A stretch of 40,000 nucleotides of DNA. Source: Pseudomonas duriflava. GTDB taxonomy: Bacteria > Pseudomonadota > Gammaproteobacteria > Pseudomonadales > Pseudomonadaceae. Below are positions 6,880 through 35,949 of the stretch, one piece after another. The DNA lies in contig NZ_VLKY01000016.1 of assembly GCF_007830155.1 (NCBI RefSeq), forward strand, positions 34,771 to 74,770, written 5' to 3'. The notes beneath the pieces were generated by a model, which saw only the letters and a list, made by a program, of their open reading frames with translations, did no database searches and was not told the origin of the DNA. A program made the translations under genes and the position numbers. Positions within the stretch are counted from its first letter, which is position 1; each line of letters starts with the position of its first letter.

Positions 6880-9800
6880 TTGGCAGAAAAGATACTGGTA
6901 GAGGAAAATATGGACCAAGGGTTAGCGGTCGGTGAGTTAGTTCAGTCTAGTGTCTTTTCTGGCATTGGCAAACTGTCGAAACTGGACCTTGAGAAGGGCC
7001 TAGGCGAGGTTGCCTTCTTCGAATCTCCTTTGAATCCTGAGACCCGTAAGGTTAGAGTAAATCTTGACGACGTTAGGAAAACTCAGTTGTATGAGGAGGC
7101 TATCGTTTATTGTCAAGATCGGGCGACAGGAATATGGCGGCGTGGCCGGTACGGTGGCCCTCGACCTCTGGACCGACATTTAGTGATTTTTCGTGCCGAC
7201 AATAACGATCAAGAAATTGTTGAAATCGACGAAATTTACTGCCTGAACTTAGGTACAAACGGCTTGTTGGATCCTTCGGCCTTTCTAGCTGCTAGATCTA
7301 ACGACGCACCTTACTTTTTTCCTTTGCGCCAGGGTTTTCTTGAGGCTTATATTGAACAGCGGGCGGCGTGCTGTTCCATCGGTGCGATTACCAGCAGTAG
7401 CGTAGAGTTGGAACCGCATCAAATTGCTGTCGTTAGGCGCGTCCTTAAGGACTCATACCCGAAGTACTTGCTAGCGGATGAAGTGGGCTTGGGCAAGACG
7501 ATCGAGGCTGGCCTGATCATCCGTGAGCACGTGCTTCAGAAGAAGTTCGACGCCAATGTTTTAATTGCGGCGCCGGCTTCTCTTGTCACTCAGTGGCATG
7601 AGGAGCTAAAGGGCCGATTTCATCTTGGCGAGTTGATGTCTACAAAACATCGATCGGAACAACTGATTCGAGTATGCAGTCATGAACAGTTGGTGACGGC
7701 TTTGGGGGAAGGCGGCCAGCCTAGCTTGTTTGTCGTTGACGAGATGCATCAATTGGCGCCGTTGGCCTGGTCCTCCGAGCAACTCTCGAATTACCGGTTT
7801 CAGGTGCTGGCGAAGGCCTGCCAGGCAGCTGAGGCGACCCTGTTATTGTCGGGAACCCCGTTGAATGGGAACGAAAGAAATTTCCTGGCGATGCTGCACT
7901 GCTTGAGTCCCGAGGCTTATGAGATCTCGGAAGCGGGGGTTCAGCGTTTCATCGCTCGAGTCAAGGAGCGTGAGTGGCTTGGCGGATTGTATAGCGCACT
8001 GACCCCGGATAACTCGAACGGCGCATTGGAACAAGCACTACAGGATCTGCGGGGGAAGTTCCCTGAGGATCAGGAGTTGCATGAGCGAATCGGCAGTTTG
8101 ATGCCGTTGGTGGATCTCTTCGCGGAGGAGAGCGGCGAGCAGCGCGAGCAACAAATCACAGGCTTGCGGCATTACCTCGGAGAACACTACCGCCTGCATC
8201 AGCGCATGCTTCGTAACCGCCGGGAAATGGGTCATCTCGCGCAGTTGTTTCCAGGATTGGCTGGTTTGCGCCGTCAATACTGGCCGATACAACCACACAG
8301 CATGCCATTGGATCTGTTGTTGGAAGAGTACCGCAGCCAGGCCTGCCGGGATCCTGATGAGTTCCAGGCGATGAGTTCTGGAGAGTACCTGGACTGGGTT
8401 GACGACCTGTTGGGCAGTCCATTGCTGGTAAAGCAGCGGGCCGATAAGTTCGATAGGCAACTGGCGGCGACGCTTGAAGCAACCGAGCGAGAGCTGCTTG
8501 CCGAAATATCCAAGCAGGCCTCACTCGAGCAGGCGTGTAAAGATCGGAGTTTGAGCGCGAGTCTGGAAGATTGGTTGGCCGAAAACCCTAAGGGCAAGGT
8601 GGTTGTTTTCTGCGGTGACGAAGTAGTCGCGGATCATGTTGCCGCTACGCTCGGTGACTCTCTGGCTGTAGGTATAGAGCGCAATGCTTCCGGCCGCGAC
8701 TTGCAGTTCTTGCTTTCGGGCGGCTCTGTGCGGGTATTGGTTTGCGATCAAGGTGGTGAAGATGGTCTTAACCTGCATGGGGGGCAGAAACTCGCCGTGC
8801 ATTACAGCCTACCGAGATCGTTCAGTCGCGTTGAACAACGTCTGGGACGATTGAACCGTTACAGCGCAAATTTGCGTGGCATCAGGCCTGTGGAAAGTTT
8901 GGTTTTGATGTCTGACCATGATGGCTTGTTCCGACGGTGGCTAGATCTGCTTGACACATCGGTAGGTGTATTCAATCAGACGGTGGCCAGTTTGCAGTAC
9001 GTACTGGAGGAGCACCTCGAAAAGACTTGGCAGGCAGTCGCGCGATCCGGCGATGAAGAGTTGCTTGTCTGCGCCAAGCAACTGAGCGGCGAGGGCGGCC
9101 TGCTGGACCGCGAGCGCCGTCGGGTGAAAGTACAGGAAGAATTGCTTGCATTGGACGAGGATGTCGCCAAGGCACGGGACTTCGCCGAAAGAATTTCTGA
9201 GGCGGACGAAATAGCCGAGGAGCAGATTGGCCGCATGTGTGCCTGGATGACGCGCGGCTTGAACTTCAGGCTAGAGGGGGATCTGCAGCAGCAATTCAGG
9301 TTGGGCTTCGGCCTTGACCCCGCTGAGCGTGGCGGTCGTACCCTGGTAGACGTGAAGACCTTTATCGAAGGTTGCATCACGGGTATTGATCCGGAAAGTG
9401 GTAACCCGCCATATACCGCTCCCATGAGTTTCTTGCGGCAGCAGGCTTCAGTTCAATCGGGCGTGTACCCCTTCCGTTACGGTCAGCCGTTCGTGGATTC
9501 CATATATGAACTGGCCGCTGGTGATTCGCGTGGGGCAACCTGCGCATTCTTGCGAATTCTTAATAGCAGTTCACTGCAGGCGCCAAAGATTTTCTTTCAT
9601 TTCAAGTGGTTGGTAACGGCTGCCCGACCGGATTGCACGTATCAGGAACAGGTTATCGCCGATGAGTTACTGGCACCTGCGGTGTATGGCCACTGGATCG
9701 CTGAAGACGGCAGCCTGGTAAAGGCCGAAAGCATATTGAAATCCCTGGAATGGCCTTACAAAAAGCCCGCGGGCGCTATCTTCCAGGATATCAATCTGCG

Positions 9801-10002
9801 CCATGATGTCTGGTCCGAGTTGGAGTTTCTATTACCTGTGGGCGAATGGAAGCGCATGGTGCTGGGTATCACTAAGTTGAGCCGAAAGAGCATCATCGAG
9901 GAGATAGGCGCTCTGCGAGGTTCCGCCCTTGACCCGCATGTGCACCTTATGGCGGTACGCGCCCAGATCCTGTGCTCGAAAGATCTGTGGAGGAATGAAT
10001 GA
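6880..10002 (+). CDS. dpdE: SNF2-family helicase, DpdE-like. The likely start is the ATG at 6910, after SD GAGGA at 6901-6905; the track starts at TTG 6880.
   Basis: SNF2 motifs: LLADEVGLGKTIEAG (I), FVVDEMHQL (II, DExH), LLLSGTPLNGN (III), LVCDQGGEDGLNLH (V), VEQRLGRLNRY (VI). It is the first gene of the overlapping dpd restriction operon. Naming follows colinearity with the published dpdD-K order, recalled from memory. Confidence 0.8.
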   Translation: MAEKILVEENMDQGLAVGELVQSSVFSGIGKLSKLDLEKGLGEVAFFESPLNPETRKVRVNLDDVRKTQLYEEAIVYCQDRATGIWRRGRYGGPRPLDRHLVIFRADNNDQEIVEIDEIYCLNLGTNGLLDPSAFLAARSNDAPYFFPLRQGFLEAYIEQRAACCSIGAITSSSVELEPHQIAVVRRVLKDSYPKYLLADEVGLGKTIEAGLIIREHVLQKKFDANVLIAAPASLVTQWHEELKGRFHLGELMSTKHRSEQLIRVCSHEQLVTALGEGGQPSLFVVDEMHQLAPLAWSSEQLSNYRFQVLAKACQAAEATLLLSGTPLNGNERNFLAMLHCLSPEAYEISEAGVQRFIARVKEREWLGGLYSALTPDNSNGALEQALQDLRGKFPEDQELHERIGSLMPLVDLFAEESGEQREQQITGLRHYLGEHYRLHQRMLRNRREMGHLAQLFPGLAGLRRQYWPIQPHSMPLDLLLEEYRSQACRDPDEFQAMSSGEYLDWVDDLLGSPLLVKQRADKFDRQLAATLEATERELLAEISKQASLEQACKDRSLSASLEDWLAENPKGKVVVFCGDEVVADHVAATLGDSLAVGIERNASGRDLQFLLSGGSVRVLVCDQGGEDGLNLHGGQKLAVHYSLPRSFSRVEQRLGRLNRYSANLRGIRPVESLVLMSDHDGLFRRWLDLLDTSVGVFNQTVASLQYVLEEHLEKTWQAVARSGDEELLVCAKQLSGEGGLLDRERRRVKVQEELLALDEDVAKARDFAERISEADEIAEEQIGRMCAWMTRGLNFRLEGDLQQQFRLGFGLDPAERGGRTLVDVKTFIEGCITGIDPESGNPPYTAPMSFLRQQASVQSGVYPFRYGQPFVDSIYELAAGDSRGATCAFLRILNSSSLQAPKIFFHFKWLVTAARPDCTYQEQVIADELLAPAVYGHWIAEDGSLVKAESILKSLEWPYKKPAGAIFQDINLRHDVWSELEFLLPVGEWKRMVLGITKLSRKSIIEEIGALRGSALDPHVHLMAVRAQILCSKDLWRNE

Positions 10003-12464
10003 TTCAGGCCCAATGGAACGCCTTGCAGAGGGCTCTGCTGGCGCCAGAGCATCAATTCGAGCAGACAGTCGTCGAGCCATACTTTCTCCGCCTGCTGATG
10101 GTGTTCGGCGACGCAAAGGCGGGCTCGGCCGATCGCGCCGTCGCTTGTCGTGATGCTTTCGGCTGTGCTCAAGCTCATGGCTGCACTGATTTGCTGCTAC
10201 AAGTGCCTGCTAGTTCCGTTGAAGGGCAACATCTAGCGCGAGTGGGCCTGACTCAAGATCCGTTAACCGACCGGGTCAGGATGGAGACTGCTCTCGAGGA
10301 AGCGGAGTTGGCGGTTTACAGACGTGAGCGTCGCCGAGTCCTGCACCAACCTCAAATAGACGTGGCCTTGAGTAGTGCTTTGGGCCGTGTTGGATTTAGC
10401 AACTACAACGGCCTCGGTCAGCAAGCTGCAGTACGTACATTGCTGACCTCTCCGGATGACAGTACGGTCTTCATCAACCTGCCGACAGGTTGCGGCAAGA
10501 CGCTGGCTGTCCATGCTTTAAGTTTGTTTGCCTATCGACAGAAAGTGGTGCTTGTCATTGTGCCAACGACCGGACTTGCCATCGAGCAGGCCGCGCGTGC
10601 TGGGGAAGTGCTGACGGCTGCAGGATCCGATCACGGCGGTAGCTACGTGTGGATCGGGGGCCAGGAGGAAGCTGAGCGTCGAGAGATTCGTGAGCGTCTG
10701 CATTGCGGCACTCAACGGATCCTGTTCTGTGCGCCCGAGTCCGCCATATCGGGCCTTAGACCATTGTTGTTCGAACTCGCCGGAAAAGGACTGCTGGGTG
10801 CGCTAGTAATCGATGAGGCGCATCTGGTCGGCCAATGGGGGGCGGAGTTCCGTCCAGACTTCCAACTGCTTGCCCCTCTTTTCCACTCCCTCAGAGAGCA
10901 CTCCTCAAGCGCCATCCGAACCTTGTTGATGTCAGCTACGTTTAATTCCGCCGCTCTGGAGGTGCTGAAGGAAGCCTTCGTTCCCGAAGGAGTTCAGGCT
11001 ATTGAGATCAATGGCAGTTTTTTGCGCCCAGAGTTGAACTTCAATGTCCGCCGAGTTATTGCAGAAGAAGAGCACCGGCAGGTTGTCGTGGACTTGCTAT
11101 GGCGTTTGCCTCGACCTCTGATTCTTTACACAACGACCCGGCAGGATGCGCAGAACTGGCGAGACTTGTTGGTCGAGCAGGGTTTCCGTCGGCTTGGCCT
11201 GTTCCATGGCGAAACCAACACCCAGGAGCGCGAACGTCTGATCGGCCAGTGGCAAGATGACCATCTGGACATCATGGTTGCGACGTCCGCCTTCGGCGTT
11301 GGCATGGATAAGAGCGATGTCCGTTCGGTATTGCATGCGGCAGTGCCAGAAAATCTGGATCGTTTTTATCAGGAGGCGGGGCGTGCCGGGCGTGACGGTA
11401 ACGCCTGTTGGTCCTGGTTGGTTTTCTACCCGGGCCAGATAAATGTGGCAGAGCAGATATCACGGGCAAGACTGATTTCCAGTGAAGTGGGATTGGATCG
11501 CTGGAACACCTTGCTGCAGAGCCGTCGACGTAGCAGTGATGGTTGCTTCAGTGTTTCTCTGTCTATGTTGCGCCGAGATTTGAAGCGACGCAGCGAAGGT
11601 AACGCAGAGTGGAACGTACGTACGTTGCTTCTGATGCAGCGTGCTGGCTTGATTCGATTGCGCTATTCACCGCCCGAGGTACCTCACGAAAACGCAGCAG
11701 TAGTCGATACGGAATTGCCTCAGGGCGACAATTACTTTGACCGCATCGATGTACAGATCCTGATGGATGCGCATCAGTCCACAGCCACTTGGCGGCACTA
11801 TGTTGATCCGCAACGTGCCCTTGAACAGCGGGTCATGGCAAACGGTTTCGCCAGTTTGCGCAGATGGCTGGATGATCCGGGCCAGTCGCTGTGCCACCAG
11901 TTAGAAGAGTTCTATCGACTGGATGGCATTAGTCCTGAACGCAGTTGCGGCGGTTGTCCTGGTTGCCGTGCTCAGGGGCGGGGACCCTTTACGCCAACGT
12001 TGAGCGCGTCTTTCCATGTGACTGGCGTAGTAACTCCCCCTATGCCGAAGTGGATGCCGGACTCCCAGTTACTGCGGATTCGCTACCGTACTGAGAGTTA
12101 TCGTAGTGTAACTCCCCGTGCTCTGATTCATAACTGGCGGCGATGGATGGTGGCTCTTCTGCGCAGCCAGCAGGTGCAGGCTGTCCGTGCCAGTCGGGCC
12201 TTGTTGGATGAAATACAGACCGATGCTGGTTTGAAAACACTACCGTTCTGGTGTGCCCTGGAACCTCGCGACAGCGCTGGAAGTTGGACTGAGTTGGTTT
12301 TACTCATGCCGGGGGAAAGCAACCTGCCTGCGGGTGGCTATGAGGTTCCAGCAAGATTGATAGTTGCGCCCGAGACTCTGAGTGATCCGTATCACCCGTA
12401 CCGAAGTTGGTGGGAGTGTGATTCCAAAAGCAAGGATTTAGTCGACTTCGAAAGGGAAATATAA
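9999..12464 (+). CDS. dpdF: RecQ-like superfamily 2 helicase, DpdF-like.
   Basis: NLPTGCGKTLAVHA (I), VIVPTTGL (Ia), LVIDEAHLVGQWGAEFRPDF (II plus the RecQ-type extension), LLMSATF (III), VATSAFGVGMDKSDV (V), FYQEAGRAGRDG (VI). Cys cluster CGGCPGCR. The start overlaps the dpdE stop (ATGA). Confidence 0.8.
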   Translation: MIQAQWNALQRALLAPEHQFEQTVVEPYFLRLLMVFGDAKAGSADRAVACRDAFGCAQAHGCTDLLLQVPASSVEGQHLARVGLTQDPLTDRVRMETALEEAELAVYRRERRRVLHQPQIDVALSSALGRVGFSNYNGLGQQAAVRTLLTSPDDSTVFINLPTGCGKTLAVHALSLFAYRQKVVLVIVPTTGLAIEQAARAGEVLTAAGSDHGGSYVWIGGQEEAERREIRERLHCGTQRILFCAPESAISGLRPLLFELAGKGLLGALVIDEAHLVGQWGAEFRPDFQLLAPLFHSLREHSSSAIRTLLMSATFNSAALEVLKEAFVPEGVQAIEINGSFLRPELNFNVRRVIAEEEHRQVVVDLLWRLPRPLILYTTTRQDAQNWRDLLVEQGFRRLGLFHGETNTQERERLIGQWQDDHLDIMVATSAFGVGMDKSDVRSVLHAAVPENLDRFYQEAGRAGRDGNACWSWLVFYPGQINVAEQISRARLISSEVGLDRWNTLLQSRRRSSDGCFSVSLSMLRRDLKRRSEGNAEWNVRTLLLMQRAGLIRLRYSPPEVPHENAAVVDTELPQGDNYFDRIDVQILMDAHQSTATWRHYVDPQRALEQRVMANGFASLRRWLDDPGQSLCHQLEEFYRLDGISPERSCGGCPGCRAQGRGPFTPTLSASFHVTGVVTPPMPKWMPDSQLLRIRYRTESYRSVTPRALIHNWRRWMVALLRSQQVQAVRASRALLDEIQTDAGLKTLPFWCALEPRDSAGSWTELVLLMPGESNLPAGGYEVPARLIVAPETLSDPYHPYRSWWECDSKSKDLVDFEREI

Positions 12465-12466
12465 GT

Positions 12467-13351
12467 ATGTCGATGGTGAATAATGCTCACCCAGGCAGCA
12501 GTCTGATCCTGCTAAATCTTATTGATCGAGTATTGGTTCGCAGGGGGAAACCAATTGCGCGCACGGAGTTATTGGAGACATTGCGGCCGGAGTTGCTCCC
12601 CAAAAGTGAGACTGGAGCAAAACGTTTTGAGTCGAATCTGGATTTCTGGTTGGAAGAAGGGTTGTGGTTGCAGGACAGCGAGGGAATGATTTTCGCGCCC
12701 CCTCAGGTCAGTGAGAATGATCTTCCGTCGCGTGTATTGCAGTTGCTTATTGATAATGCAGCCACGCGGTCGGAATCGGCTATCTTGGACGGTACTCGCA
12801 CTGAGCCATTTCTTCGTGCAATGACCTGTTTGTTAGCGCAGCGTCGGTACACCTTCATGGGCGGGGAGTCGGTAAGCTCTTCCAATGCCGCCGAGGCGGT
12901 AAATAGCCATCTACCGGGGCGGGGGTTGAATGAGTCTAACGAACTCCCGACCTTTTTGGCCTATGGGGAATTCCTTGGCTTCTTGGAGCCCTTCGGAAAG
13001 GGTTACATTGTAGATCCTACTTTAGCTATCGAACCCTACCTTGAGAGAATTTTCGAAGGCGGGCGAGTACTTCCGTTTAGAGTATTTCTCGAACGTTTGG
13101 GAGGGTACCTACCTCTGCTTGATGAAGGGGCCTATCGTCGATTGTTGGAACCTTGCATGGAAAATTGGAAGCCAGACGCACCATATGAAGTAAGCGCCGC
13201 ACTCAGCCACGCTCTAGTCCGTCTGGAAAGTCTGTTTCGATTACGCTTGGAAAAGTCCTCTGACGATAGTTTGAGTATGCGACTGCTGTTGCCAAATGGT
13301 GTTCAACGCTCCGTAGGTGAGATTCAATACCGTACTGAGGTCGCTGTATGA
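12467..13351 (+). CDS. dpdG: Hypothetical protein; DpdG by position.
   Basis: 294-aa ORF starting 2 nt after the dpdF stop and overlapping the next gene (ATGA). No motif recognised. Assigned purely by synteny. Confidence 0.5.
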   Translation: MSMVNNAHPGSSLILLNLIDRVLVRRGKPIARTELLETLRPELLPKSETGAKRFESNLDFWLEEGLWLQDSEGMIFAPPQVSENDLPSRVLQLLIDNAATRSESAILDGTRTEPFLRAMTCLLAQRRYTFMGGESVSSSNAAEAVNSHLPGRGLNESNELPTFLAYGEFLGFLEPFGKGYIVDPTLAIEPYLERIFEGGRVLPFRVFLERLGGYLPLLDEGAYRRLLEPCMENWKPDAPYEVSAALSHALVRLESLFRLRLEKSSDDSLSMRLLLPNGVQRSVGEIQYRTEVAV

Positions 13352-16300
13352 GTCTGATCAATTACTGGCCAAGTTCGGAACACATTTCCCAGTGCATCCG
13401 TACGGAGGCAGAGGAGTTAGCTGAGCACGTACTCTTAGCGGTGCATGAGCCTATGCAGTTGCTTCGGGTAGGTAACGGAGCAGAGCAGCAATGTACCGAG
13501 GCCGATCTGCTAACGCACTTTCTAGAGGTGGAGAGACCGATTCCCTTGGTCGGGCGTTCCGGCGTAGGAAAATCCCACCTGATTCGCTGGTTGGAAGCCC
13601 AACTAAAACTGCAGTCGCTATCCGCCAACTGGCATATCGTTCGCATTCCGAAGAATGCAAGTTTGCGTCAGGTATTGGAAATCCTTCTGGATGGCTTGGA
13701 AGGAGACGAGTTCGAGAGTGCACGTCTACGGATTCGGTCTGTAGGTGAAATGCTGAGGACCGGAGAGGTAGCTGACTTGCTGTTGACCTTCATGTCACAG
13801 CAATTGCAGCGACTCAACACCCGGATCGCAGAGCAAATTAGCTATTACCGAGAAAATCCGCAGGCCAGTCAAAAATTGTCTGTTGAAGAAAAGCAGCGTT
13901 GGCGAGATGTTAACGCGCATACTACGCCGGGGTGTGGTCTTTCCGAACTGATTACCGACCCTAATTTCAAGAGAAGCTTGCTTGATCCGAAGCATTGTAT
14001 TTATCAGTTCGCAAGCCGGTTGACTCAAGGCGCTACCGATCAAGAGTTAAGTCGAAACGATTACCAGATCAGGGCCGAGGACCTGGATTTCAGTTTCAAC
14101 CTCGATGACCTGTCGCAAAGCGCTCGGCAGTATGTCAGTCGAGCTCAATTGAATACCAATCGGCAAGCCCAAGAGTCCGCAGCAGGTGTATTAAACGAAG
14201 TTTTGGGAGAGTCAACCAGAACTGCTTTTCGTCATTTGTTCAGTTTCAATGGCGGTAGTTTTTTAGACCTCTTTAAAGACATCCGTCGTACCTTGAAACA
14301 TCAGGATCGCACTCTGGTAGTACTGGTGGAGGATATGGCTGCGATTTCTGCTATCGAGGACGTGCTAATCGACAGCCTTCTGGAAGAGGCCGTTAGGGAT
14401 GAAAAGCAAGAACTGTGTACGCTTCGCTCGGCTATCGCGGTAACGGATGGTTATCAAGGATATCTGCGACGGCAGGACACGATTAAAACACGTGCACAGT
14501 ATGAATGGTTGATACGTGATCATGGCCAGAGTCGCGAGCAAACGCTGGAGCGCATTGTTGATTTCTGCGGTCGCTACCTGAACGCTGCCCGTCACGGTAG
14601 TGCAAAACTGAAAGCGTCCTGGTTGGAGCGCTCGACAGACGTCAGTTGGCCGTTAATTTGGGAAGATTCCGAAGGCCCGCCGGAGGAACTCCAGGCATTC
14701 GGCCATTCGCCTTCTGGCGTGCCGCTCTTCCCTTTCAATCGCAACGCGATCAATGCGCTGGCGGATCACTATTGCAGCAACGACGAAGAGTTGAATTTCA
14801 ATCCCCGCCAAGTGTTGAACCAAGTTGTGTTGCGAGTATTACGTGATCATCGGCAGGCGTGCCAGGAGCAGAGATTCCCGCCGGCAGATTTCGCCAATAT
14901 CAAGGCCGGTGCAGGACTGATTGACCTGTATAGACTCGACGAACCAGCACGCTGCGAATCTTTGGCCGCTATCTGGGGGTACGGTTGCCGGTCTATCGCA
15001 GAGTTGCAGCAGAACTTGGATTGGCGCGTAGCAAACGTCTTCGGGCTAAACGCATTGGCATCTTTGTTGGAAGAGGTGCAACCCGTTGGTTTTGTTCGCC
15101 CACCAACGCGGACAGGTACTGGTCCGAAAAAAACTAAACCTGCGGTAGAGCCAGGAGTACTGAAATCCGAGCCTGATCCCGATCAGCACCGATTGGAAGA
15201 GATTGTTTCAGAGTGGTTTCAGCGTACAAAGAAGTTGGAGCAAGACGAATCCAGGGATCTAAGAAACGCCCTGAACAAGATGTATCAGCAATATGCTCAT
15301 CCGGACTGGTTTGGCTTAGGGGCGCGGCCGGAATTACTGCGTGGGACGATTGCTAATATCAATATTCCATTTTCCCTTACTGGGAACAAAGCCACCAATT
15401 TGGTGTGGTTCTGCCAGGAAGCGGACTTTGAGGCCCCTCAAAAGGCAGTTGCTTTGAAGGGCGTAGCGCTGGCGCTTCTGCGTTACGAGAGCGTCAATCG
15501 AAGATCCGCTGGGATAGGTTGGCAATACCCTGGTGGATTCGATGATTACCTGCGCTACCAGAATTTCGCCGCACGTTGGGTTCCGCAAGTTCTACAAACA
15601 CTTTCGCTAATGGAGCGCTCAAAACTTCATGAGGTGATGAAAGAACAATTGAGTCTAGTTCCCATCCTGGGATTATGGAGGACCGCGTCCAATGATCGCC
15701 AGCGACTCAATGAATTGCTCACTCCGGCACAAAAGATTCTGGAGTCATTGCCAAAACCTGCTTCTCCGATACTGCTAGAACTCCGCAAAAGTGCCTTGGA
15801 TGAGTGGGAAGGAAAGCGAGATGCCTGGTTGAAGTTGGTGGCCGCCAATGACCATGGTATGGATGGAGAGTTGGCGCTTAGGTCATTCAAAGAGGCTAGT
15901 AAGACTGATTTTAAGCAGAAGTTGCCAAGGTATGACAAAGAAATCACCCAGGCACTGCAGTCGTCGTTCGATGTGCTGTCCGTTCTAGATGGCTATTCTC
16001 GGCACGAGCAATTTTGCCTCTTGCTGGATGAAATGTCTGAAATTGTTCGTGGCGTAAGTGAAGGCGGGTTGCATTATCCCGCTCAGTTTTCAGACGTGCC
16101 GAATGCCAAGAGGATGCGTGAGGCATTGAACTCTCTAAAAGCAAGCGAGGTTTGGGCGGCAGTCAAGGTTTTCCTCTCATCTTGGAACGAATCTGATTTG
16201 CCCAAGAAGTTGCAGTTGATCAATCAGGTAGACGGTCAAAAACTGGAAGAGGCCGTTCAGACACTGGGTGCGTGGGATAAATTCTATTCCTATGTCTTGC

Positions 16301-21612: not shown

Positions 21613-21621
21613 GGGCGCGCT

Positions 21622-24329: not shown

Positions 24330-24449
24330 AGAGGTGACCTCAAAGGTGTCGAGTTCTCGGTATCATCCTGATGATGAGTGCAAAGTTGTTTCTGCTCAAT
24401 GTGTACGATAGTTTACATAGTAATCAATCCGTCAAGCATTTAACAAAGC

Positions 24450-24857
24450 TCATCGCGTCCAGCGCAAAACGCAGCGATCGCCGCTGGCTCGGCGTTCGAT
24501 CATAACGGCGCATAGGCCTGGTACCGAATCTGCCATCTGTGCGCGAATAAAAGCACAGAGATTCTCGATAGTGGCAGATCCTAGACCTTGAACCTCATCA
24601 AGGAATCGGTGATCTAGCATCTCTTTTACTCTGGCAATTTCACTGCGCAGATAGCCAAGATCTATAAGCATCCCGGAGGTGGGATCCGGTTGACCAGCGA
24701 CGGTAACCTCTGCTTCGTAGGTATGTCCGTGGATACGTAGACTGCCCTCGGTCTCGATAGTACGATTCAAGGTGTGGGCTGCTTCGAAGAAAAAGCGCTG
24801 CGATAGTTCGTACACGCTCCTGCAGTTGTCCAAGGCATTATCTGTGGATGTAGACAT
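24450..24857 (-). CDS. queD: 6-carboxy-5,6,7,8-tetrahydropterin synthase QueD.
   Basis: 135 aa. FFFEAAHTL and SLRIHGHTYEAEVTV match the QueD/PTPS H..HGH zinc-binding signature. It sits next to queE and queC, and its start overlaps the queE stop by 1 nt. Confidence 0.85.
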   Translation of the reverse strand: MSTSTDNALDNCRSVYELSQRFFFEAAHTLNRTIETEGSLRIHGHTYEAEVTVAGQPDPTSGMLIDLGYLRSEIARVKEMLDHRFLDEVQGLGSATIENLCAFIRAQMADSVPGLCAVMIERRASGDRCVLRWTR

Positions 24858-25489
24858 CAGCGAATCTCCAATATCTTATGTGTCTGTACAGAGAGACGCC
24901 ATTTGGTGTTCTCCTGACAATAGGCAATGGCAGAGCGGGTATTCTGCCTCTGCATTGGTCCATCCATGGGTTGCAATAGATAGTAGTGAAAGTTGCTATC
25001 AAGCGCGGCCATGGGGAGTAGGCCAGGCTGGGGATAAACAAGTTTTAGTTCGTGGCCGCTGCGCTGCACCCACTCCGAGCCAGCCTTAGGGCTAACGCAG
25101 ATCCAATCGATACCTTGAGGTACTGGAATGGTCCCGTTAGTCTCCACAGCAATTTCAAAACCCTGATCATGCAAGGCCTCGATGAATGCTTCATCTACCT
25201 GCATTAAGGGCTCGCCTCCCGTCAATACAACATAGCGGTGCTCCTGGCCGCTTGGCCAGAGCGAGGAAATTTGTTCAACTAAGATCTCCGCAGTCTGATA
25301 CTTGCCACCTAAGGTTCCGTTCGTACCCACAAAGTCTGTGTCGCAAAACTGGCATACTGCCTTGGAGCGATCGGTTTCCCGACCACTCCACAGATTACAC
25401 CCTGCAAAACGACAAAAAACTGCAGGTCGGCCTGCTCGAAGCCCTTCCCCCTGCAGGGTGTAAAAGATCTCTTTAACGCTATAAGTCAT
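24857..25489 (-). CDS. queE: 7-carboxy-7-deazaguanine synthase QueE (radical SAM).
   Basis: 210 aa. [46 protein letters not shown] carries a CX14CX2C-type cluster motif typical of the short QueE class. C-terminal [12 protein letters not shown]. Confidence 0.9.
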
Positions 25490-26190
25490 GCCACGCTATC
25501 TCGCTGAAACGCCTCAAAGCCAGTTCGGCGTAGCTCGCAGGCAGGGCATTGATTGCAGCCATAACCCCAGTCATGACGATGCTGCCGATCCCCCAGATAA
25601 CAGGTATGGGTGTGCTCTTGAATAAGAGCAACAAAGTTTGGCCCGCCAAGGGCTTTGGCCAGATCCCAGGTTTGTTTCTTATCCAACCACATTAGCGGTG
25701 TCTCAATTACCAGTGGCATATCCATACCTAGGCTCAGAGATACCTGTAACGCTTTGAGTGTGTTGTCGCGACAGTCGGGATAGCCCGAGTAGTCTGTTTC
25801 ACACATCCCGCCTACAAGTACGCTCAGTCCTCTGCGATAGGCGAGGGTAGCGGCGAAGGTAAAAAAAAGAAGGTTACGACCCGGTACAAAGGTATTAGGT
25901 AGACCATTTTCTTCAACCTCAATCGCTTTTTCGGCAGTCATTGCCGTATCGCTGATCTGACTGAGTAGCTTTAAGTCTAATAAATGGTCTTCGCCTAATT
26001 TGCTCTTCCAGCCGGGAAATTCATCTCTTAGCTTCTCTAGAATATGCATACGACACTGCAATTCCACCTCATGACGCTGACCGTAGTCGAAACCCACTGT
26101 TTCGACATGCTCATATCTAGTTAAAGCCCAGGCTAGGCAAGTGGTAGAATCCTGGCCACCTGAGAACAGAACCAACGCTGACTTATGCAT
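25486..26190 (-). CDS. queC: 7-cyano-7-deazaguanine (preQ0) synthase QueC.
   Basis: [19 protein letters not shown]-loop motif. C-terminal zinc cysteines CYLGDR...[11 protein letters not shown]. 234 aa. Confidence 0.9.
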
Positions 26191-26204
26191 AATTTAGTTA
26201 ACTC

Positions 26205-27272
26205 TTAACTAGTGGGCTGGGTCTTTTTCAATTCCTGACTCAATTTTCGCGTCAGAAATTGGCTCAAGAGGGCGATATCACTAGGTGTGTTTTGAATACC
26301 GTTCCAGGGTCGCCGATCATTTTCTGAAAAAATCCACTCGCCACTAGTCCAGGCAGTGTAAGGCTTAAGCAATCGTAATCCATTAATAAAAGACTGTTTG
26401 TCGACAGATCCGCCTGTGCTGTAGATCAGTTCCATAACGAAGCCTAGCGCGATAAGCCCAGCGCCGTGCTTTAGACGGGAATTGCGAGGGGCTAAACCGT
26501 CCCATTCGTTTTTAAAAACAACTCTTACCGCGTGGAAGAAATTATTAATTACTTCAACTGATCTGGACTCAAAATCGTCAAACTTCATGAACGATCGAAT
26601 CGCACCATCATTTGCTGAGTTCATTACTAATTTCTGCATTGCTGTATCACTCAATGTACCCTGCGGATTTGTATGCTGGCGTACCTCGCAAAATAGTGAT
26701 GAAGAAGGAAGGAAATTGAGCGTATCAACAATGCGTGCAGCAAATTTACGACTGGTAAAGCGCTCCGGCAAGCCTTCTACGGTTGGCAGCAATTCATAAA
26801 TCAATGATTTAGGCAGAGGCCGAGTATTGTTGATCAGTATGAACTGCTGTCGAAGTTCATTGTAATCTTTACAAACAAGCGCAGAGACGAAGACTTGAAA
26901 ATCACCCTTATCCATGCTTGAAAGGGCGCTAAGTCGTTGTTGGCCATCAACTACAAAACCCGGTTTTGAGGATGTTGCATCAATGTCAATTGCAACTACG
27001 CCGTCCCCTTGATCTTTAAGCGTCACATCTCCCAAAAAGGCAAGAATGATCGCATTGGGTAAGAGTGCATCCTCACGGCTCAGATAATCGCGAATATCGT
27101 TGATATGGGACGCTACCTGATGACGCTGAAATCCTTTTAGTTGTCCTTCATTGTCACGTCCAACTCGTTCAATTTCTGAGAATTGGAGTATGTCTTGAGG
27201 ACGAGCGGCAAATGTAAAAACATCATGGCCAGAGGCTTGCTGCGCCCTAACACCTTTATAACGGAAAATCAT
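26205..27272 (-). CDS. dpdB: DGQHR/DndB-like ParB-superfamily protein, DpdB (paralog 1, immediately downstream of dpdA).
   Basis: GFQRHQVASHINDIRDYL, LPNAIILAF, FVVDGQQRLSAL and QFILINNTRPLPKSLIYELLP give the DGQHR-domain pattern. The start overlaps the dpdA stop (ATGA). Confidence 0.75.
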   Translation of the reverse strand: MIFRYKGVRAQQASGHDVFTFAARPQDILQFSEIERVGRDNEGQLKGFQRHQVASHINDIRDYLSREDALLPNAIILAFLGDVTLKDQGDGVVAIDIDATSSKPGFVVDGQQRLSALSSMDKGDFQVFVSALVCKDYNELRQQFILINNTRPLPKSLIYELLPTVEGLPERFTSRKFAARIVDTLNFLPSSSLFCEVRQHTNPQGTLSDTAMQKLVMNSANDGAIRSFMKFDDFESRSVEVINNFFHAVRVVFKNEWDGLAPRNSRLKHGAGLIALGFVMELIYSTGGSVDKQSFINGLRLLKPYTAWTSGEWIFSENDRRPWNGIQNTPSDIALLSQFLTRKLSQELKKTQPTS

Positions 27273-28564
27273 TCTTTGTGTTCCAGGGTCTTTTGCAAGT
27301 GTCGGTAATAGACGCCTAGGTTATGAAACCCACGACGCTTGTTACGATTACTTGCTCGAAAAATAATGGTTTCAACGCCAGCAGACTGACAAATCGTGCA
27401 TTGGCACTTTTGCCAAGGTTTGTCACGCAGTGTGGGAGAAATAAGCCGAATATTTTTAGCTATTTCCTTCTCCTTTTCTGCCTCACTGAGCGATGAGCCA
27501 CTTAGCGCTAAACGTAAGTAATCGATTAAGGCGGAGAGCGTTTCGTCATAATCTAACAGGCCCTTGTCATACTCACGAATAGCCTTGAGCGCTACTATCT
27601 CTTTTTTCTGCAACTCTTCGGCACTAAGTGTTCCTTTCTTAATACCTTGCATAAGGCGTGGATTCTCTATCGCTTGTGGAATCCTGATGGCTGTGTAGTA
27701 GTCAAGTTTTCGAGTCAGGTTATCGAGATAATAATTGGCTTTTGCATCCTTGAAGGCACGTATCAACGGTGAGGTTGAATCAAAGCTCGTAATGCCGTAG
27801 TTAGTAAATTCGTGGATTTGTTCAGCTTTAGCAAATCCCAAAAGATGAATATTGGTTTCTGGTTTTAAAATATTACGTAGCGCCTTAAGCACCGCGTGGA
27901 TTTGCTCGACCTTAAGAGGAACAAGCCCGCCAATGGCAAGATACCGATATCCCATCGCTTCCAATGATTTAGCTGCTGTGGCCATGCTTTCAGGTGACCA
28001 ACCTTGAACAGCGCCGAGCGGTTCGAAAGGCCAGTCTGCCTCTTTGACTAGGCGCAAAAACTCTCTTGCATTTTCTAACGTGATTTCATAACGGTAAATT
28101 ACATCTCTTGGCTGAGAGTCTGCCGGAGGATTCGTCACATCACAGTCAAAAATAATATGGTCAGGCGAGCAGCCATGTGTAAACCCTGCATCAGAATAAA
28201 ATTCCATCACCTCTAGCGGTGTATAGGCAGGCGTTGGATGAGTTACATAAGCAAAAGCGCCACAGTCGCCCAAAATCATGATATTGGAAAACTTGGGGCC
28301 TTCTAGACGCAAAAATTTTCGCACACCATCTCTAAGTAAACGCTGCTGCTCAGAGGTCGAATAGCGGACTTTCGAGTTAGCGACCCCTAACGCAGGACGC
28401 ACCGCGCTCATTGACACCAGTAATCCATCATAGGGCACAGGGGTCATCATTTCGTGCGCATACTGATCATCCCAGTAGCGCTTGCGCCCTGGCGCATTAC
28501 GATCATTGATAAAATCGTAATAAGGATCTACATAATCTTGGGTATCGGCGTATAGAAATTTCAT
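27269..28564 (-). CDS. dpdA: tRNA-guanine transglycosylase-like DNA 7-deazaguanine transglycosylase DpdA.
   Basis: 431 aa. TGT-type C-terminal zinc motif KCQCTICQSAG...FHNLGVYYRHL (CxCxxC...H) and the internal strand YLAIGGLVPL. It is embedded between DGQHR genes and beside queCDE, which is the diagnostic Dpd context. Confidence 0.8.
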   Translation of the reverse strand: MKFLYADTQDYVDPYYDFINDRNAPGRKRYWDDQYAHEMMTPVPYDGLLVSMSAVRPALGVANSKVRYSTSEQQRLLRDGVRKFLRLEGPKFSNIMILGDCGAFAYVTHPTPAYTPLEVMEFYSDAGFTHGCSPDHIIFDCDVTNPPADSQPRDVIYRYEITLENAREFLRLVKEADWPFEPLGAVQGWSPESMATAAKSLEAMGYRYLAIGGLVPLKVEQIHAVLKALRNILKPETNIHLLGFAKAEQIHEFTNYGITSFDSTSPLIRAFKDAKANYYLDNLTRKLDYYTAIRIPQAIENPRLMQGIKKGTLSAEELQKKEIVALKAIREYDKGLLDYDETLSALIDYLRLALSGSSLSEAEKEKEIAKNIRLISPTLRDKPWQKCQCTICQSAGVETIIFRASNRNKRRGFHNLGVYYRHLQKTLEHKE

Positions 28565-29688
28565 TATCGTATGCTGGTTATATAAAGACGTAACAATGTG
28601 TCTTGCAAAGTTTTTATATCTTTCTTTGTATGTTCAAGTTCGTTCCAGGCAATATCTATGCCTGGCCATTTGCCAGAGGTCCACGCACAATGAGGTACTA
28701 TTCGAGAGATTTCTTGTACAAGACTTTCGTAATTATTATTGTAGCCATTGAGCTTTGCATAAATACGGTCCATTAACACTCCCATAGCAATAATGCCTGC
28801 TGAGTGCATAAGGCGGCTATTTTTAGGGTCAAGGCCCCATGCGCTTGGAAAGCACTGTTTTACAGCTTTCCAAAAATGTACTAGTAATTGATACATGGCC
28901 TCTACATTTGCCGCTTCGTCATTACTGGATTTGTAGGGATAGAGCGCTCCTAACGGATTACTCATACTATGTTTGATCATGGTGATGACCGAAGTATCTG
29001 TAACGACAGATGAAGTATCTTTTTGATCTGAAAGACGCTTAATGAGCTTATAAAACGGAGATTCAGGATCCCGATTAAGTAAACCGCATAGTTCGGCAGG
29101 TGCTTTTTTAGCGCTAAGCTCTTTGGGTAATAAAATACTACTTGTTTCCGGCAGTAACTCATTAATCAGCCGGGTTGGAAGCGGCTTAGCCTTATTAACT
29201 AAAATAAATTGCTCTCGCTGAGTTGTTAGATTGTCGGAAACAAAGCCAACAACAGGAACAGGCAAGTCAGCGTTTTCAGCTTTAGCTAGCGCTAACGAGC
29301 GTTGTTGACCATCAACAATCCAAGCAGAGCGCTCCCCCATTTTATGAATCGGTATACGTAATGTTCCAGCTTGAGCTATGCCTTCATCGCCCGTTGGTTT
29401 TGTTCCTCGAGAGGCTGTGAATTTAATATCTGAAGACAGGGCTAGAATAATCGCGTTTGGAAATAATACATTTCCTTGGTTTAAGTACTGAATAATGCCT
29501 TTTACGTGGCTTCGGATCTCAGGCCTTTGAAAGCCTTTCAAAGCATTACTCTCATCACGAGCCAGGCGGGTTATGTCAGCAATTCTGACAAGATCTGAAC
29601 CTCTAATAAACAAAGCATAGACGTCTAAATCATCACCTTGAGTGGTTCGAAGTGCTCGAACGACAATCTCTTGATAAATCTCCGTCAT
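28564..29688 (-). CDS. DGQHR/DndB-like ParB-superfamily protein, divergent DpdB-like paralog 2 (immediately upstream of dpdA).
   Basis: GFQRPEIRSHVKGIIQYL, FPNAIILAL, WIVDGQQRSLAL and QFILVNKAKPLPTRLINELLPE. It is colinear with paralogs 1 and 3 but much more divergent. Its stop overlaps the dpdA start by 1 nt. Confidence 0.75.
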   Translation of the reverse strand: MTEIYQEIVVRALRTTQGDDLDVYALFIRGSDLVRIADITRLARDESNALKGFQRPEIRSHVKGIIQYLNQGNVLFPNAIILALSSDIKFTASRGTKPTGDEGIAQAGTLRIPIHKMGERSAWIVDGQQRSLALAKAENADLPVPVVGFVSDNLTTQREQFILVNKAKPLPTRLINELLPETSSILLPKELSAKKAPAELCGLLNRDPESPFYKLIKRLSDQKDTSSVVTDTSVITMIKHSMSNPLGALYPYKSSNDEAANVEAMYQLLVHFWKAVKQCFPSAWGLDPKNSRLMHSAGIIAMGVLMDRIYAKLNGYNNNYESLVQEISRIVPHCAWTSGKWPGIDIAWNELEHTKKDIKTLQDTLLRLYITSIR

Positions 29689-30620
29689 GCTTCACCTCTA
29701 GATGCGGCGCCATCCTTTAGTTGCGACCAGAGAGTTCGAAACCGCGACTGCTCGCAGGCGACTTTCGCTTCATCTCGGAGATAGCGTAGTAACCGGGTTG
29801 AACTCCCTCCATACGAAGCCCAAACCTCTTTAAGCAAGGTCAAGACCTCCTGGTCTGTAACTCGACGCCTCGCTACCTTACTAACTGTTTGCAACCGATC
29901 CATGGCCTCATTTACGGTATGACGGGCCACTGTAATGGGTTGAAAAGCGAGGTTAAGGTCCTCAATAAAGTGGAGCATTGCCCGTTGCGGGTAATCGTTT
30001 CTAGTTCCTGCTATACGTGAGCTTTCAAGTCGCTCGTCGTAGGGCATAGCAACGTGCTTAAAATGTTCTGGGAGATGTATAATCCCGGGGCGTGAAGTAA
30101 ATATTCGGATTTTTGCGGCATCTACAGCATTTATTTGCGCAAGATCATTTGCGATAAGATCGATATAATTGGCTGAGAGAGCAATTAATATGAGCCCTAC
30201 ATCAGGGCTGCCTGCCAGTTCTTTAATGGGGTAGGGCTGATTGTATTGAGTATTAATCGCGTCCCACCAATCTCGAGGGCTAGCTCCAAACTCATTGAGT
30301 TTAAGGCGAATCGAACCTGCGCCCTCGGCAACCGTTAGGTCATAAAGAGGGCAAAGGCCATCACTAGGAATAAGGCCCATTCCTGTAGAGGCAAACATCA
30401 GCTCAGCTTTCAGTGCTCGGGCTACCTTAAACGCTTCCTGAACACTTCGCCCTACATACAGGGACCCCGCCTGAACAAGAGGTTCATGCGCTTTAACTTT
30501 TTGTGCCCACAAAGCTGCCATCATCGTAAGCGATTCGCAATCTGAAGGCTCGAAAGTTACTCGCAATGAGCCACTCATACGCTTTCGGTTCGTGCAATTA
30601 GTGATGATGACAGTGCGCAT
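29685..30620 (-). CDS. Hypothetical protein; DpdC candidate (preQ0-DNA to ADG-DNA conversion) by synteny only.
   Basis: 311-aa ORF, first gene of the minus-strand operon, overlapping paralog 2 by 4 nt. N-terminal pattern IITNCTNRKR...LYVGRSVQEA...FASTGMGLIPSD...YDLT. I cannot confirm the family from memory. Confidence 0.45.
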   Translation of the reverse strand: MRTVIITNCTNRKRMSGSLRVTFEPSDCESLTMMAALWAQKVKAHEPLVQAGSLYVGRSVQEAFKVARALKAELMFASTGMGLIPSDGLCPLYDLTVAEGAGSIRLKLNEFGASPRDWWDAINTQYNQPYPIKELAGSPDVGLILIALSANYIDLIANDLAQINAVDAAKIRIFTSRPGIIHLPEHFKHVAMPYDERLESSRIAGTRNDYPQRAMLHFIEDLNLAFQPITVARHTVNEAMDRLQTVSKVARRRVTDQEVLTLLKEVWASYGGSSTRLLRYLRDEAKVACEQSRFRTLWSQLKDGAASRGEA

Positions 30621-30798
30621 AAAACTGTTGGGTCCCGTTTGCGAGGGGTTGCAGTTATTTGAATCTGTGCAATTCTAGCATCAGTAACTGCATAAGATCA
30701 TTCCAGGTAGTCTGATTTTTGTACGGGCCTGCCGTTGCTCATGTGGTTAACGTCGAGTAAGCCAGTAAAGACATATCCAGATTAGGTAGGAGAGACAA

Positions 30799-31875
30799 GT
30801 GTTACGGTTTGCAGCCATACAGGCCCTACAAAGTGACACCCATCAGGTGCTCTCATTTGCAGCTACCGTTGAGCAAGTACTTGCTATCGCAGCTATTGAT
30901 CGAGTCAAGCGAGATGACAAAGGCTTTTTACTAGGATTTCAGCGACCACTCGTATCCAAGCATATTAAAGAGATTCGCGATTATTTAGGCCGCCCAGATG
31001 CGGTTATGCCTAACGCCGTGGTGCTAGCGTTCACAAGTGGCATTAATGTCAAACGTAACGGCGGCCCCTATGTGGAACTTGAAGTGGATGCCTCCTCTGG
31101 ACCCGTAGGGTTTGTTGTTGATGGTCAGCAACGACTGTCAGCATTGGCTGGCTTGCCTACAAGTTCATTCCAAATACTTGTCTCAGCGCTGATATGCAAT
31201 AGCGCCGAGGAGTTACGGAGACAATTCATACTCGTAAACAATACAAGTCCGTTACCTAAGTCGTTGATTTATGAACTGCTACCCTCGGTTGAGGGATTGC
31301 CTCGGCGGATGAACGCTCGATCAAGGGCAGCCAGAATTGTCGAAATGTTAAATTATGACGCTCGCTCTTCTCTAAGAGGGCAGATAAAGCAACATACAAA
31401 TCCGACCGGCGTAATAGGCGACACCGGATTGCAGAAGTTAGTGATGAATTCCTTATCAGACGGGTATTGCCGATCTGTAATAGACCATGAGAATGGGGAA
31501 GAGACGTGCTTTTTGGCAATAAGCGAATTTTTCTTAGCTGTTCAGCAGGTTTTTAGTTCAGCCTGGTATGGCCATACGCCAAAGTCCTCACGCCTAGTGC
31601 ATAGCGCTGGAATTATTTCTATGGGTTTTGTGATGGAGCAGTTATGTCATGCTGGAAAGCCTTTAGCTCCAGTTTTTAAGTTAGGGCTAAGCGCGTTAAA
31701 GGGAAAAACAGCCTGGACAGTCGGCGATGGTGAATGGCCTTTTAGAGCCGGTAAAAGACCTTGGAATGGCATACAAAATCTTCACGGAGATATTCATCTG
31801 CTGACTGACTACTTAACTAAGCTGGTCCGGTCCCCTATGGGTAGTCGTCATAACAAAACAACATCAATCGAATAA
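30799..31875 (+). CDS. DGQHR/DndB-like ParB-superfamily protein, DpdB-like paralog 3 (divergently transcribed).
   Basis: GTG start with SD AGGAGA upstream. GFQRPLVSKHIKEIRDYL, MPNAVVLAF, FVVDGQQRLSAL and QFILVNNTSPLPKSLIYELLPSVEGLP. It aligns by eye end to end with paralog 1, with roughly half the positions identical. Confidence 0.75.
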   Translation: MLRFAAIQALQSDTHQVLSFAATVEQVLAIAAIDRVKRDDKGFLLGFQRPLVSKHIKEIRDYLGRPDAVMPNAVVLAFTSGINVKRNGGPYVELEVDASSGPVGFVVDGQQRLSALAGLPTSSFQILVSALICNSAEELRRQFILVNNTSPLPKSLIYELLPSVEGLPRRMNARSRAARIVEMLNYDARSSLRGQIKQHTNPTGVIGDTGLQKLVMNSLSDGYCRSVIDHENGEETCFLAISEFFLAVQQVFSSAWYGHTPKSSRLVHSAGIISMGFVMEQLCHAGKPLAPVFKLGLSALKGKTAWTVGDGEWPFRAGKRPWNGIQNLHGDIHLLTDYLTKLVRSPMGSRHNKTTSIE

Positions 31876-32458: not shown

Positions 32459-32692
32459 ATGAGCCTTCATTATGACGAAGACGAAAGGCCTAAAAAGCTT
32501 GATAAATTCCATTATCACGAAGCGCTTCATACCTGCGATGTGATTAGCCGGATGATCAGTACAGAACTGTGTGACCACTGGACATATGCTGAAATGAGTG
32601 ATGAGTCCAGACAGCATTTAGAGGATGCTCAGGCTTCACTATATAAATATTACTGCCTTCTTTGCGACAGGCAGGATGAGTTAAAAGATTAA
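32459..32692 (+). CDS. Hypothetical small protein.
   Basis: 77-aa ORF with SD-like AAGGGA upstream. Rich in Cys/His (HYHEALHTCD, CDHW, CLLCD). No family recognised. Confidence 0.35.
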   Translation: MSLHYDEDERPKKLDKFHYHEALHTCDVISRMISTELCDHWTYAEMSDESRQHLEDAQASLYKYYCLLCDRQDELKD

Positions 32693-35942: not shown

Positions 35943-35949
35943 CTGGGAG

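Follow-up and report, generated by a model that had tools for sequence, protein, structure and literature searches.

Does the 25-kb region at 6.9–31.9 kb of the Pseudomonas duriflava DNA analysed here encode a complete Dpd system for 7-deazaguanine modification of DNA and restriction, and in which of its parts does it differ from the Dpd islands already known? The stretch comprises positions 34,771 to 74,770 of contig NZ_VLKY01000016.1 (assembly GCF_007830155.1); its full length of 40,000 nucleotides (nt) is called the window below, and all coordinates are counted within it. Dpd was reportedly first described in 2016, by Thiaville, in Salmonella enterica serovar Montevideo, and it is, to our knowledge, the largest restriction-modification system known. 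Dpd as such is already known, and almost all of its genes are covered by curated models. Judged by which genes are present and in what order, by the families to which they belong and by their intact motifs, it is very probable, as far as can be read from the DNA, that the P. duriflava locus is a complete and apparently intact Dpd restriction-modification island of a multi-DpdB subtype. It is an ordinary Pseudomonas example, near-identical layouts being common in the genus, and its only unusual feature is the presence of three DpdB copies.

Gene content and assignment to the Dpd family

According to the list of open reading frames (ORFs), the region 6.9–31.9 kb comprises 16 long ORFs, arranged as two converging blocks and one divergent gene; a preliminary description of this DNA had counted 17 proteins in the range. 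The ORFs lie where that description placed them, with the dpdE-K genes converging on the que-dpd operon. The plus strand carries eight genes in the order dpdE-F-G-H-I-J-K-D, of which the first seven had been listed correctly and the eighth, dpdD, had been omitted. The minus-strand genes are transcribed in the order dpdC-dpdB2-dpdA-dpdB1-queC-queE-queD, and dpdB3 is located on the plus strand, divergent from dpdC; being the third of its kind (30799–31875), it corrects the earlier count of two DpdB-like genes. Most adjacent genes overlap by 1–8 nt or are separated by gaps within about 15 nt, and the overlapping start and stop codons suggest co-translation. No interrupted ORF was found, and all 16 ORFs are full length relative to their profiles, with intact motifs.

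The assignments are based on NCBIfam scores, given below in bits against the curated equivalog cutoffs, and on searches with PADLOC and Pfam profiles. Nine Dpd families (A, B, D, E, F, G, H, J, and K) pass their curated NCBIfam cutoffs, with scores well above chance level, and PADLOC agrees with NCBIfam for DpdE, F, G, H, J, K, and D. The restriction operon, located on the plus strand, opens with dpdE (6910–10002), encoding an SNF2-family helicase of 1030 amino acids (aa) that matches NF041062 with 1004 bits against a cutoff of 500 and PADLOC DpdE with 1231 bits, and carries the motifs DEVGLGKT and DEMH. The longest ORF opens at a TTG at 6880. The likely start is the ATG at 6910, as indicated by the length of a 1030-aa P. 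duriflava protein at NCBI that is 100% identical and annotated as "ATP-dependent helicase HepA." The second gene, dpdF (9999–12464), codes for a RecQ-like DEAH helicase (805 against 550 bits; PADLOC 921) with DEAH, SAT and QxxGRxGR motifs. It is followed by dpdG (12467–13351), whose product has no assigned biochemical function and matches NCBIfam DpdG over its full length (316 against 80 bits) as well as PADLOC DpdG, and by dpdH (13348–16428), encoding a P-loop ATPase, the BrxC-like part of the system (893 against 450 bits; also PADLOC DpdH), with a Walker A motif, GRSGVGKS, at residue 69.

The next gene, dpdI (16421–17179), is a divergent copy. Its product reaches 105 bits (cutoff 150) and has no PADLOC match at E <= 1e-25; despite the sub-cutoff score the alignment spans positions 2–239 of the 239-position NCBIfam profile, and relatives have a gene of the same length at the dpdI position. 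The large YprA-family DExH helicase encoded by dpdJ (17179–21612; 1676 against 800 bits, PADLOC 1790) contains Walker A, DEVH, SAT and QRKGRAGR motifs. Its ATG at 17179, as read from the start-codon context, overlaps the dpdI stop codon, while the longest ORF starts at a TTG at 17176. A small putative nuclease of the phospholipase-D (PLD) family with an HxK motif is encoded by dpdK (21622–22149; 186 against 100 bits). It contains H120-S-K122 and the downstream GSLN, and is 54% identical to the DpdK of an Enterobacter plasmid. The operon closes with dpdD (22146–24329), encoding a protein of 727 aa (578 against 300 bits; PADLOC 631).

Dpd, DISARM, BREX, and Druantia have helicase families in common, namely SNF2 (DrmD, BrxHII), YprA (DrmA, DruE) and the BrxC-like ATPase (bioRxiv 10.1101/2025.09.15.676423). 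The SNF2 core that DpdE has in common with DrmD and BrxHII, and the YprA family to which DpdJ belongs together with DrmA and DruE, would fit a plus-strand operon that is another helicase-based defence system and merely lies beside a 7-deazaguanine cluster. This reading is refuted by the scores, and we assign it a negligible probability. In the comparison with NCBIfam and PADLOC profiles, set beforehand as a possible refutation of the Dpd assignment, the Dpd models win over those of DISARM and BREX: the 1004 and 1231 bits of DpdE stand against 132 and 106 bits for DrmD. Of the two NCBIfam DrmD models, one gives 132 bits (cutoff 610) and the other 68 (cutoff 950); ZorD gives 27 against 1500, and PADLOC BrxH gives 105. 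DISARM and BREX models thus score about ten times lower than the Dpd models; the remaining non-Dpd matches are also far under their cutoffs, whereas all Dpd models except DpdI are far above their own, and DpdF, G, H, J, and K strongly match Dpd models only. ORF and profile searches revealed no methyltransferase, PglZ or DUF1998 genes in the operon; the self mark of Dpd, unlike that of DISARM, BREX, and Druantia, is a base exchange and not methylation. The order of SNF2 helicase, RecQ-like helicase, P-loop ATPase, giant DExH helicase and HKD nuclease that had been read from the translations corresponds to matches with the DpdE, F, H, J, and K models, and the broader claim of a complete Dpd-type 7-deazaguanine system holds as well, since each named Dpd component matches its model (DpdI below the cutoff, at full length); its preQ0 genes are represented in the window by queC, queE and a queD-like gene.

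The products of dpdE-F-G-H-I-J-K-D would be three helicases, a BrxC-like ATPase, a PLD-family nuclease and three proteins without an assigned activity. Together they would attack DNA that lacks the 7-deazaguanine mark; we infer both the activity of this copy and the manner in which DpdD-K would sense and cut DNA.

The modification operon and its DpdB paralogues

The central gene of the minus-strand operon, dpdA (27269–28564), encodes a DNA-guanine transglycosylase (NF041059, 553 against 200 bits) that aligns with the S. Montevideo DpdA structure (PDB 7ui4) with an E value of 6e-94. Residues are numbered below via this alignment, and their roles are those given in PMC10164549. The equivalents of the general acid/base Asp95, the nucleophile Asp256 and the base-binding Asp130 are kept, and so are those of Phe99, Gly206-Gly207, Leu236 and Phe265, as well as the zinc site CxCxxC...H, with spacing identical to 7ui4. 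The loop GGLVPL corresponds to the preQ0-type pattern described for S. Montevideo. The sole change at the named active-site positions is the replacement of His181 by Gln (Gln188 here, in AVQGW); in S. Montevideo DpdA, His181 was modelled to hydrogen-bond the base (PMC10164549). Gln is found at this position in 43 of the 44 DpdA sequences from two-DpdB loci, including that of the window, the remaining one being a fragment (L042) that stops before the site. His occupies it in the single-DpdB Enterobacter plasmid and in the crystal structure.

The first gene of the modification operon, dpdC (29685–30620, minus strand), encodes a protein of 311 aa. Its membership in the DpdC (DUF6884) family is indicated by synteny and by the match to PADLOC model PDLC02815 (1e-89, 299 bits), which covers positions 6–308 of 312. 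The protein is 34% identical to the gene product at the same position in Agrobacterium vitis. Conservation of at least 93% across 43 homologues is seen at 44 positions, and the protein retains every one of them, Cys9-x-x-Arg12-Lys13 among them. An exact look-up of the DpdC protein gave no record.

Genes for the synthesis of preQ0 (7-cyano-7-deazaguanine) are located at the end of the operon. The standard components are queC (25486–26190), encoding preQ0 synthase (TIGR00364, 202 against 150 bits), and queE (24857–25489), encoding a radical-SAM 7-carboxy-7-deazaguanine synthase of the Cx14CxxC type (TIGR04508, 347 against 240 bits) with the motif at residue 31; both pass their NCBIfam cutoffs. 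The third gene (24450–24857) had been called queD, which stands as far as the PTPS family is concerned (Pfam PTPS, 88 bits). Its product lacks the diagnostic catalytic Cys and falls under both NCBIfam QueD cutoffs, the low score being due to a Ser in place of the Cys of the CxxxHGH signature. In the resulting SxxxHGH motif, Ser39 (S39-L-R-I-HGH) aligns with the catalytic Cys of the P. aeruginosa and Escherichia coli QueD structures, a residue described as catalytic and required (PMC5041015, PMC9894224). The motif is also unlike the ExxHGH of PTPS-III and the CxxxxxHGH of PTPS-II; the protein retains the three zinc-binding His as well as the Asp-His pair and the Glu. Ser takes the place of the Cys in 14 related loci and, among the 120 best database homologues, in 119; in Lampropedia aestuarii a Ser-type queD belongs to a queC-queE-queD operon that stands alone, without neighbouring dpd genes. 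This conservation, together with the stand-alone operon, suggests that the Ser-type protein probably works as a QueD despite failing the signature, and is not the product of a dead gene. For annotation, it is relevant that both DpdC and the Ser-type QueD escape the curated Pfam and NCBIfam models.

Proteins of 364–436 aa with two tandem PTPS domains, the first with CxxxHGH and the second without the Cys, were observed in many betaproteobacterial dpd islands (L011, L019, L021, L023–L029, and L032–L036, at about 13.1–14.2 kb in most). The non-Cys PTPS matches in betaproteobacterial loci were ruled out as a separate accessory family, since they are the second domains of these fused double-PTPS proteins.

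The proposed pathway follows the chemistry of DpdA, DpdB, and DpdC established for S. Montevideo (PMC10164549). The QueD-like protein, QueE and QueC, with a FolE encoded elsewhere, would make preQ0, and DpdA would exchange particular guanines in double-stranded DNA for it, with ATP hydrolysis by the ParB-like DpdB. DpdC is predicted to convert the incorporated deoxynucleoside of preQ0 (dPreQ0) in DNA to 2'-deoxy-7-amido-7-deazaguanosine (abbreviated dADG), which we infer to be the product. The same multi-DpdB subtype is encoded by a Comamonas testosteroni locus (L018), and dPreQ0 and dADG are reported, at the species level, in the DNA of C. testosteroni in a statement of PMC12235509 that cites Thiaville 2016.

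All three DpdB copies are DGQQR-type ParB-like ATPases and exceed the NCBIfam DpdB cutoff of 300 bits: dpdB1, downstream of dpdA (26205–27272, minus strand), with 381 bits; dpdB2, upstream of dpdA (28564–29688, minus strand), with 461; and dpdB3 (plus strand) with 342. The DGQQR motif, which has been tied to NTPase activity (PMC10164549), is at residue 109 in DpdB1 and at residue 126 in DpdB2, and is found in DpdB3 too; all three copies likewise keep the residues of 55 columns that show no variation across a six-sequence alignment. The similarity of dpdB3 to dpdB1 and dpdB2 is also all that underlies the inverted repeats I1 and I2 from the repeat search. The DGQHR/DGQQR ParB-like NTPase domain is common to DpdB and to DndB and SspE of the Dnd/Ssp systems, as evidenced by Pfam DndB matches, while the phosphorothioate chemistry of Dnd/Ssp is unlike that of Dpd. 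The DpdB copies reach only 31–52 bits with the DndB-associated NCBIfam model (cutoff 450), and DpdB lacks the SspE nuclease motif (PMC10164549).

A neighbour-joining tree of 106 DGQHR proteins places every upstream copy (DpdB2), including those from 43 further two-DpdB loci, in one separate clade, and all downstream copies (DpdB1) in another, where they are joined by the only DpdB that the Enterobacter plasmid encodes. This shared clade makes DpdB1 the orthologue of the canonical DpdB that has been studied; DpdB2 is, on this phylogeny, an old paralogue. DpdB3 is nested in the DpdB1-type clade and was seen only in Pseudomonas loci. Relative to P. argentinensis, the nonsynonymous divergence (dN) is 0.22 for DpdB1, 0.19 for DpdB2, 0.23 for DpdB3 and 0.17 for DpdA. 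The synonymous divergence (dS) is saturated, so that dN/dS is not computable for the modification genes; with dS saturated, DpdB dN values close to that of DpdA indicate purifying selection on all three copies.

Further, very divergent DGQHR-domain proteins are encoded near dpd islands, at 4029–5210 (minus strand) of the P. argentinensis locus (L009) and at 20018–21058 of L044, and similar genes are present in L007, L021, L025, L032, L034, L037, and L040. The divergent DGQHR proteins found by the search form an outgroup clade apart from DpdB1, DpdB2, and DpdB3.

The multi-DpdB architecture is widespread and already known from annotation and census: a 2025 survey of 2335 unique dpd islands counted 801 additional copies of dpdB, more than for any other dpd gene (PMC12235509). 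In the literature, no functional study of the architecture was found. A DpdA scan with one genome per species yielded 42 loci, the closest from Pseudomonas (80–85% identity), followed by Variovorax, Comamonas, Caballeronia, Achromobacter and others. The 43 further two-DpdB loci, an A. vitis plasmid among them, are distributed among alpha-, beta-, and gammaproteobacteria. The order dpdB2-dpdA-dpdB1 is found in 40 of the 42 scan loci, the other two (L035 and L042) being cut by the contig end; in contigs of sufficient extent the block has dpdC before it and, in most cases, queC and queE after it. In P. aeruginosa the layout is identical, including the third DpdB and the adjacent 145-aa gene, and occurs in 233 blocks of the assembly collection. 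The P. aeruginosa loci L049 and L050 match the window gene for gene, with the 145-aa gene and dpdB3, dpdC-dpdB2-dpdA-dpdB1-queC-queE-queD (Ser type) on the opposite strand, and a converging dpdD-K-J. Neither E. coli genomes nor plasmids gave a megablast match to the 25-kb region.

In comparison, the S. Montevideo system comprises the same eleven families, DpdA to DpdK, and a DpdB with the same DGQQR motif. It has one DpdB instead of three, and the window differs from it further in the Gln at DpdA position 181, the very divergent DpdC and the presence of queC, queE and a Ser-type queD inside the operon. Proteins of the enterobacterial type are only about 40–54% identical to those of the window. 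The canonical single-DpdB island of the Enterobacter cloacae plasmid pPOL9A (NZ_CP086409, L043) has the same layout, with a dpdC-like gene, dpdA and dpdB converging on dpdD-K-J-I-H-G-F-E; it has neither a DpdB upstream of dpdA nor a third DpdB, carries His181, and shows no que genes in the stretch compared. The gene order that had been described as different is therefore canonical in its placement of dpdC first, in the succession from dpdE to dpdK and dpdD and in its convergence; the second DpdB upstream of dpdA does differ, yet is common. The A. vitis plasmid (CP146243, L044) and C. testosteroni ATCC 11996 (L018) have dpdC-dpdB-dpdA-dpdB followed by que genes, and neither has the Pseudomonas pair of dpdB3 and the 145-aa gene. 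Both dpdA-flanking genes of A. vitis are labelled DpdB by PGAP; its plasmid additionally encodes a Cys-type QueD and a VUT-family transporter and has an interrupted restriction region. A natural and widespread subtype therefore exists in which DpdA has Gln181, QueD is of the Ser type and DpdB is present as two ancient paralogues.

The 178-bp region between dpdC and dpdB3 (30621–30798) is a divergent promoter region. An inverted repeat, GCAGTTA-N28-TAACTGC, is located in it at about 30640–30690, some 40–85 nt upstream of dpdC; in an alignment with nine Pseudomonas loci its two arms match exactly in the window and in L009, and L001–L008 show a single mismatch. It could be an operator. Scans for promoter and terminator consensus sequences gave sites no more numerous than in shuffled sequence. 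The 145-aa protein (31888–32325, plus strand) is encoded after a 12-nt gap from dpdB3, next to which it is kept in L001–L009 and P. aeruginosa. It is 100% identical to a P. duriflava protein at NCBI, and the same DNA is also present in a Logan assembly. It has no Pfam, NCBIfam or PADLOC match and four database homologues; its AlphaFold2 model is a helical bundle (mean pLDDT confidence score 88) with no significant fold match in the PDB. A 77-aa ORF was called after it, at 32459–32692.

Modular history and alternative readings

Comparison with the P. argentinensis island revealed that the two halves of the locus have different histories. Nucleotide identity is 93–98% over 17.3–24.1 kb (dpdJ, dpdK, dpdD), 77–81% across queD-queE-queC and 65–71% from dpdB1 to dpdC, or overall about 96% for the restriction module and about 67% for the modification module. 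The change occurs at a sharp recombination breakpoint at about 24.1–24.5 kb, the convergent junction of dpdD and queD, across which the G+C content falls from about 53% to about 45%. The G+C content at third codon positions is 0.34–0.44 in the modification module and 0.52–0.60 in the restriction genes, and likewise in relatives. Values of dS relative to P. argentinensis are 0.15–0.17 for dpdK and dpdD and saturated for the modification genes. The pairing is opposite in L001, where the modification module is as close as any (DpdA 85% identical) and DpdJ and DpdK are only 38% and 29% identical. This break in identity and the opposite pairing in L001 are the grounds for concluding that the modification and restriction modules have evidently been exchanged as units between Pseudomonas lineages. 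The islands of P. argentinensis (L009) and the other Pseudomonas loci (L001–L008) have the same multi-DpdB architecture and differ in the pairing of the modules. The exchange would fit restriction machinery that reads the mark and not a particular sequence context.

Several observations weigh against a complete and working island of the kind described. The DpdI score is under its curated cutoff, DpdA has Gln at a base-contacting position at which the studied enzyme has His, and DpdC has no match in the Pfam and NCBIfam copies searched and is only 25% identical (E 4e-6) to the gene at the same position in the canonical Enterobacter island. The QueD-like protein lacks the Cys that defines QueD and does not have the published CxxxHGH signature; folE was not found within the 40-kb window and must come from elsewhere. 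In addition, S. Montevideo DpdA and DpdB formed no stable complex (PMC10164549), and the roles proposed below for DpdB2 and DpdB3 are tentative. Taken together with the frequency of partial restriction operons among Dpd islands (PMC12235509) and the different histories of the two modules, the weak DpdI score and the absent Cys of QueD could mean that the island is a relic, in decay or reduced to modification, which has lost its restriction function. Against this speak the full length and intact motifs of all 16 ORFs, the low ratios of nonsynonymous to synonymous divergence of the restriction genes relative to P. argentinensis (dN/dS 0.05–0.18), and the occurrence of the Ser-type QueD both in 119 of 120 best homologues and in a stand-alone queC-queE-queD operon, and we consider a relic very improbable. 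Somewhat less improbable, though still quite unlikely, is an end product other than dADG, in which case only dPreQ0 or another 7-deazaguanine derivative would result from the combination of a divergent DpdC, a DpdA with Gln181 and a QueD of the Ser type. The failure of DpdC to match Pfam or NCBIfam and its low identity to the canonical-position gene are in line with such a product, as are the loss of the residue modelled to hydrogen-bond the base and the fact that some validated dpd islands do not make dADG (PMC12235509). Conversely, the PADLOC DpdC match is of full length, its near-invariant positions are all kept, the GGLVPL loop of DpdA fits the preQ0-selective pattern, and the subtype recurs in C. 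testosteroni, for which both dPreQ0 and dADG are reported at the species level.

The purpose of the additional DpdB copies admits two accounts. In S. Montevideo, base exchange depends on the ATPase of DpdB, which forms a homodimer (PMC10164549); it is therefore reasonable to suppose, as a best guess, that DpdB1 and DpdB2 would jointly serve DpdA, as a heterodimer or as two clamps, and that DpdB3 and the 145-aa protein would form an accessory or regulatory pair. Extended to the whole island, this leads to the tentative proposal, less probable than not, that multi-DpdB islands are a mechanistically distinct subtype in which a Gln181 DpdA works with a heteromeric DpdB1/DpdB2 clamp, the Pseudomonas DpdB3 and its 145-aa partner tune or redirect modification, the repertoire of target sites is different, and restriction reads the mark independently of this context. 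The last element is suggested by the occurrence of one modification module together with restriction modules whose protein sequences diverge by as much as about 65%. The other account, likewise less probable than not, has DpdB2 and/or DpdB3 act as regulators in the manner of DndB, binding DNA and controlling expression or the extent of modification, with DpdB1 alone driving DpdA. Among ParB-like proteins, DpdB falls into the branch of DndB, which has been reported as a regulator (PMC5699537); dpdB3 diverges from dpdC across a region with a partly conserved inverted repeat, and DpdB1 is orthologous to the single canonical DpdB. The regulatory account is opposed by the presence of the NTPase motif and the same invariant positions in all three copies, by the overlap of dpdB2 with dpdA and dpdC within the operon, which is typical for subunits, and by the retention of DpdB2 in all 43 further loci.

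With the complete multi-DpdB island as the preferred reading, the locus offers experimental handles on two questions, namely which DpdB copies DpdA needs and whether the restriction module accepts the marks of a foreign modification module. The useful details for such work are how the three DpdB copies are related by orthology, the Gln181 signature, the Ser-type QueD and the clean module swap relative to P. argentinensis.

Neighbouring genes

Searches of the window revealed no tRNA genes or Rfam families, and no tRNA-linked integration site could therefore be shown. No integrase was found around the island, and the repeat search detected no direct repeats bounding it.

Two overlapping GmrSD-like (DUF262) genes, with GmrSD_N+DUF7834 and GmrSD_N+GmrSD_C domains, are located upstream of dpdE (3214–6730, plus strand) and look like a type IV (modification-dependent) restriction pair. 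Their inclusion in the Dpd system was rejected, since in P. knackmussii transposase, TIR and AAA genes are found upstream of an 84%-identical dpdE; the pair is a separate neighbour in the defence island. It is preceded by genes for a WYL-domain (BrxR-like) regulator (1077–1949) and a 235-aa protein with no assigned function (2490–3197).

On the other side of the island, the region 33009–36716 encodes a NUDIX-ADP-ribosylglycohydrolase fusion (516 aa) and a Fic/DUF4172 protein (413 aa). Pyocin_S and colicin-type "Cytotoxic" domains are encoded by short ORFs of the same region, after which an immunity-like gene (DUF7683) is found; these short toxin-domain ORFs look like orphan toxin-immunity remnants.

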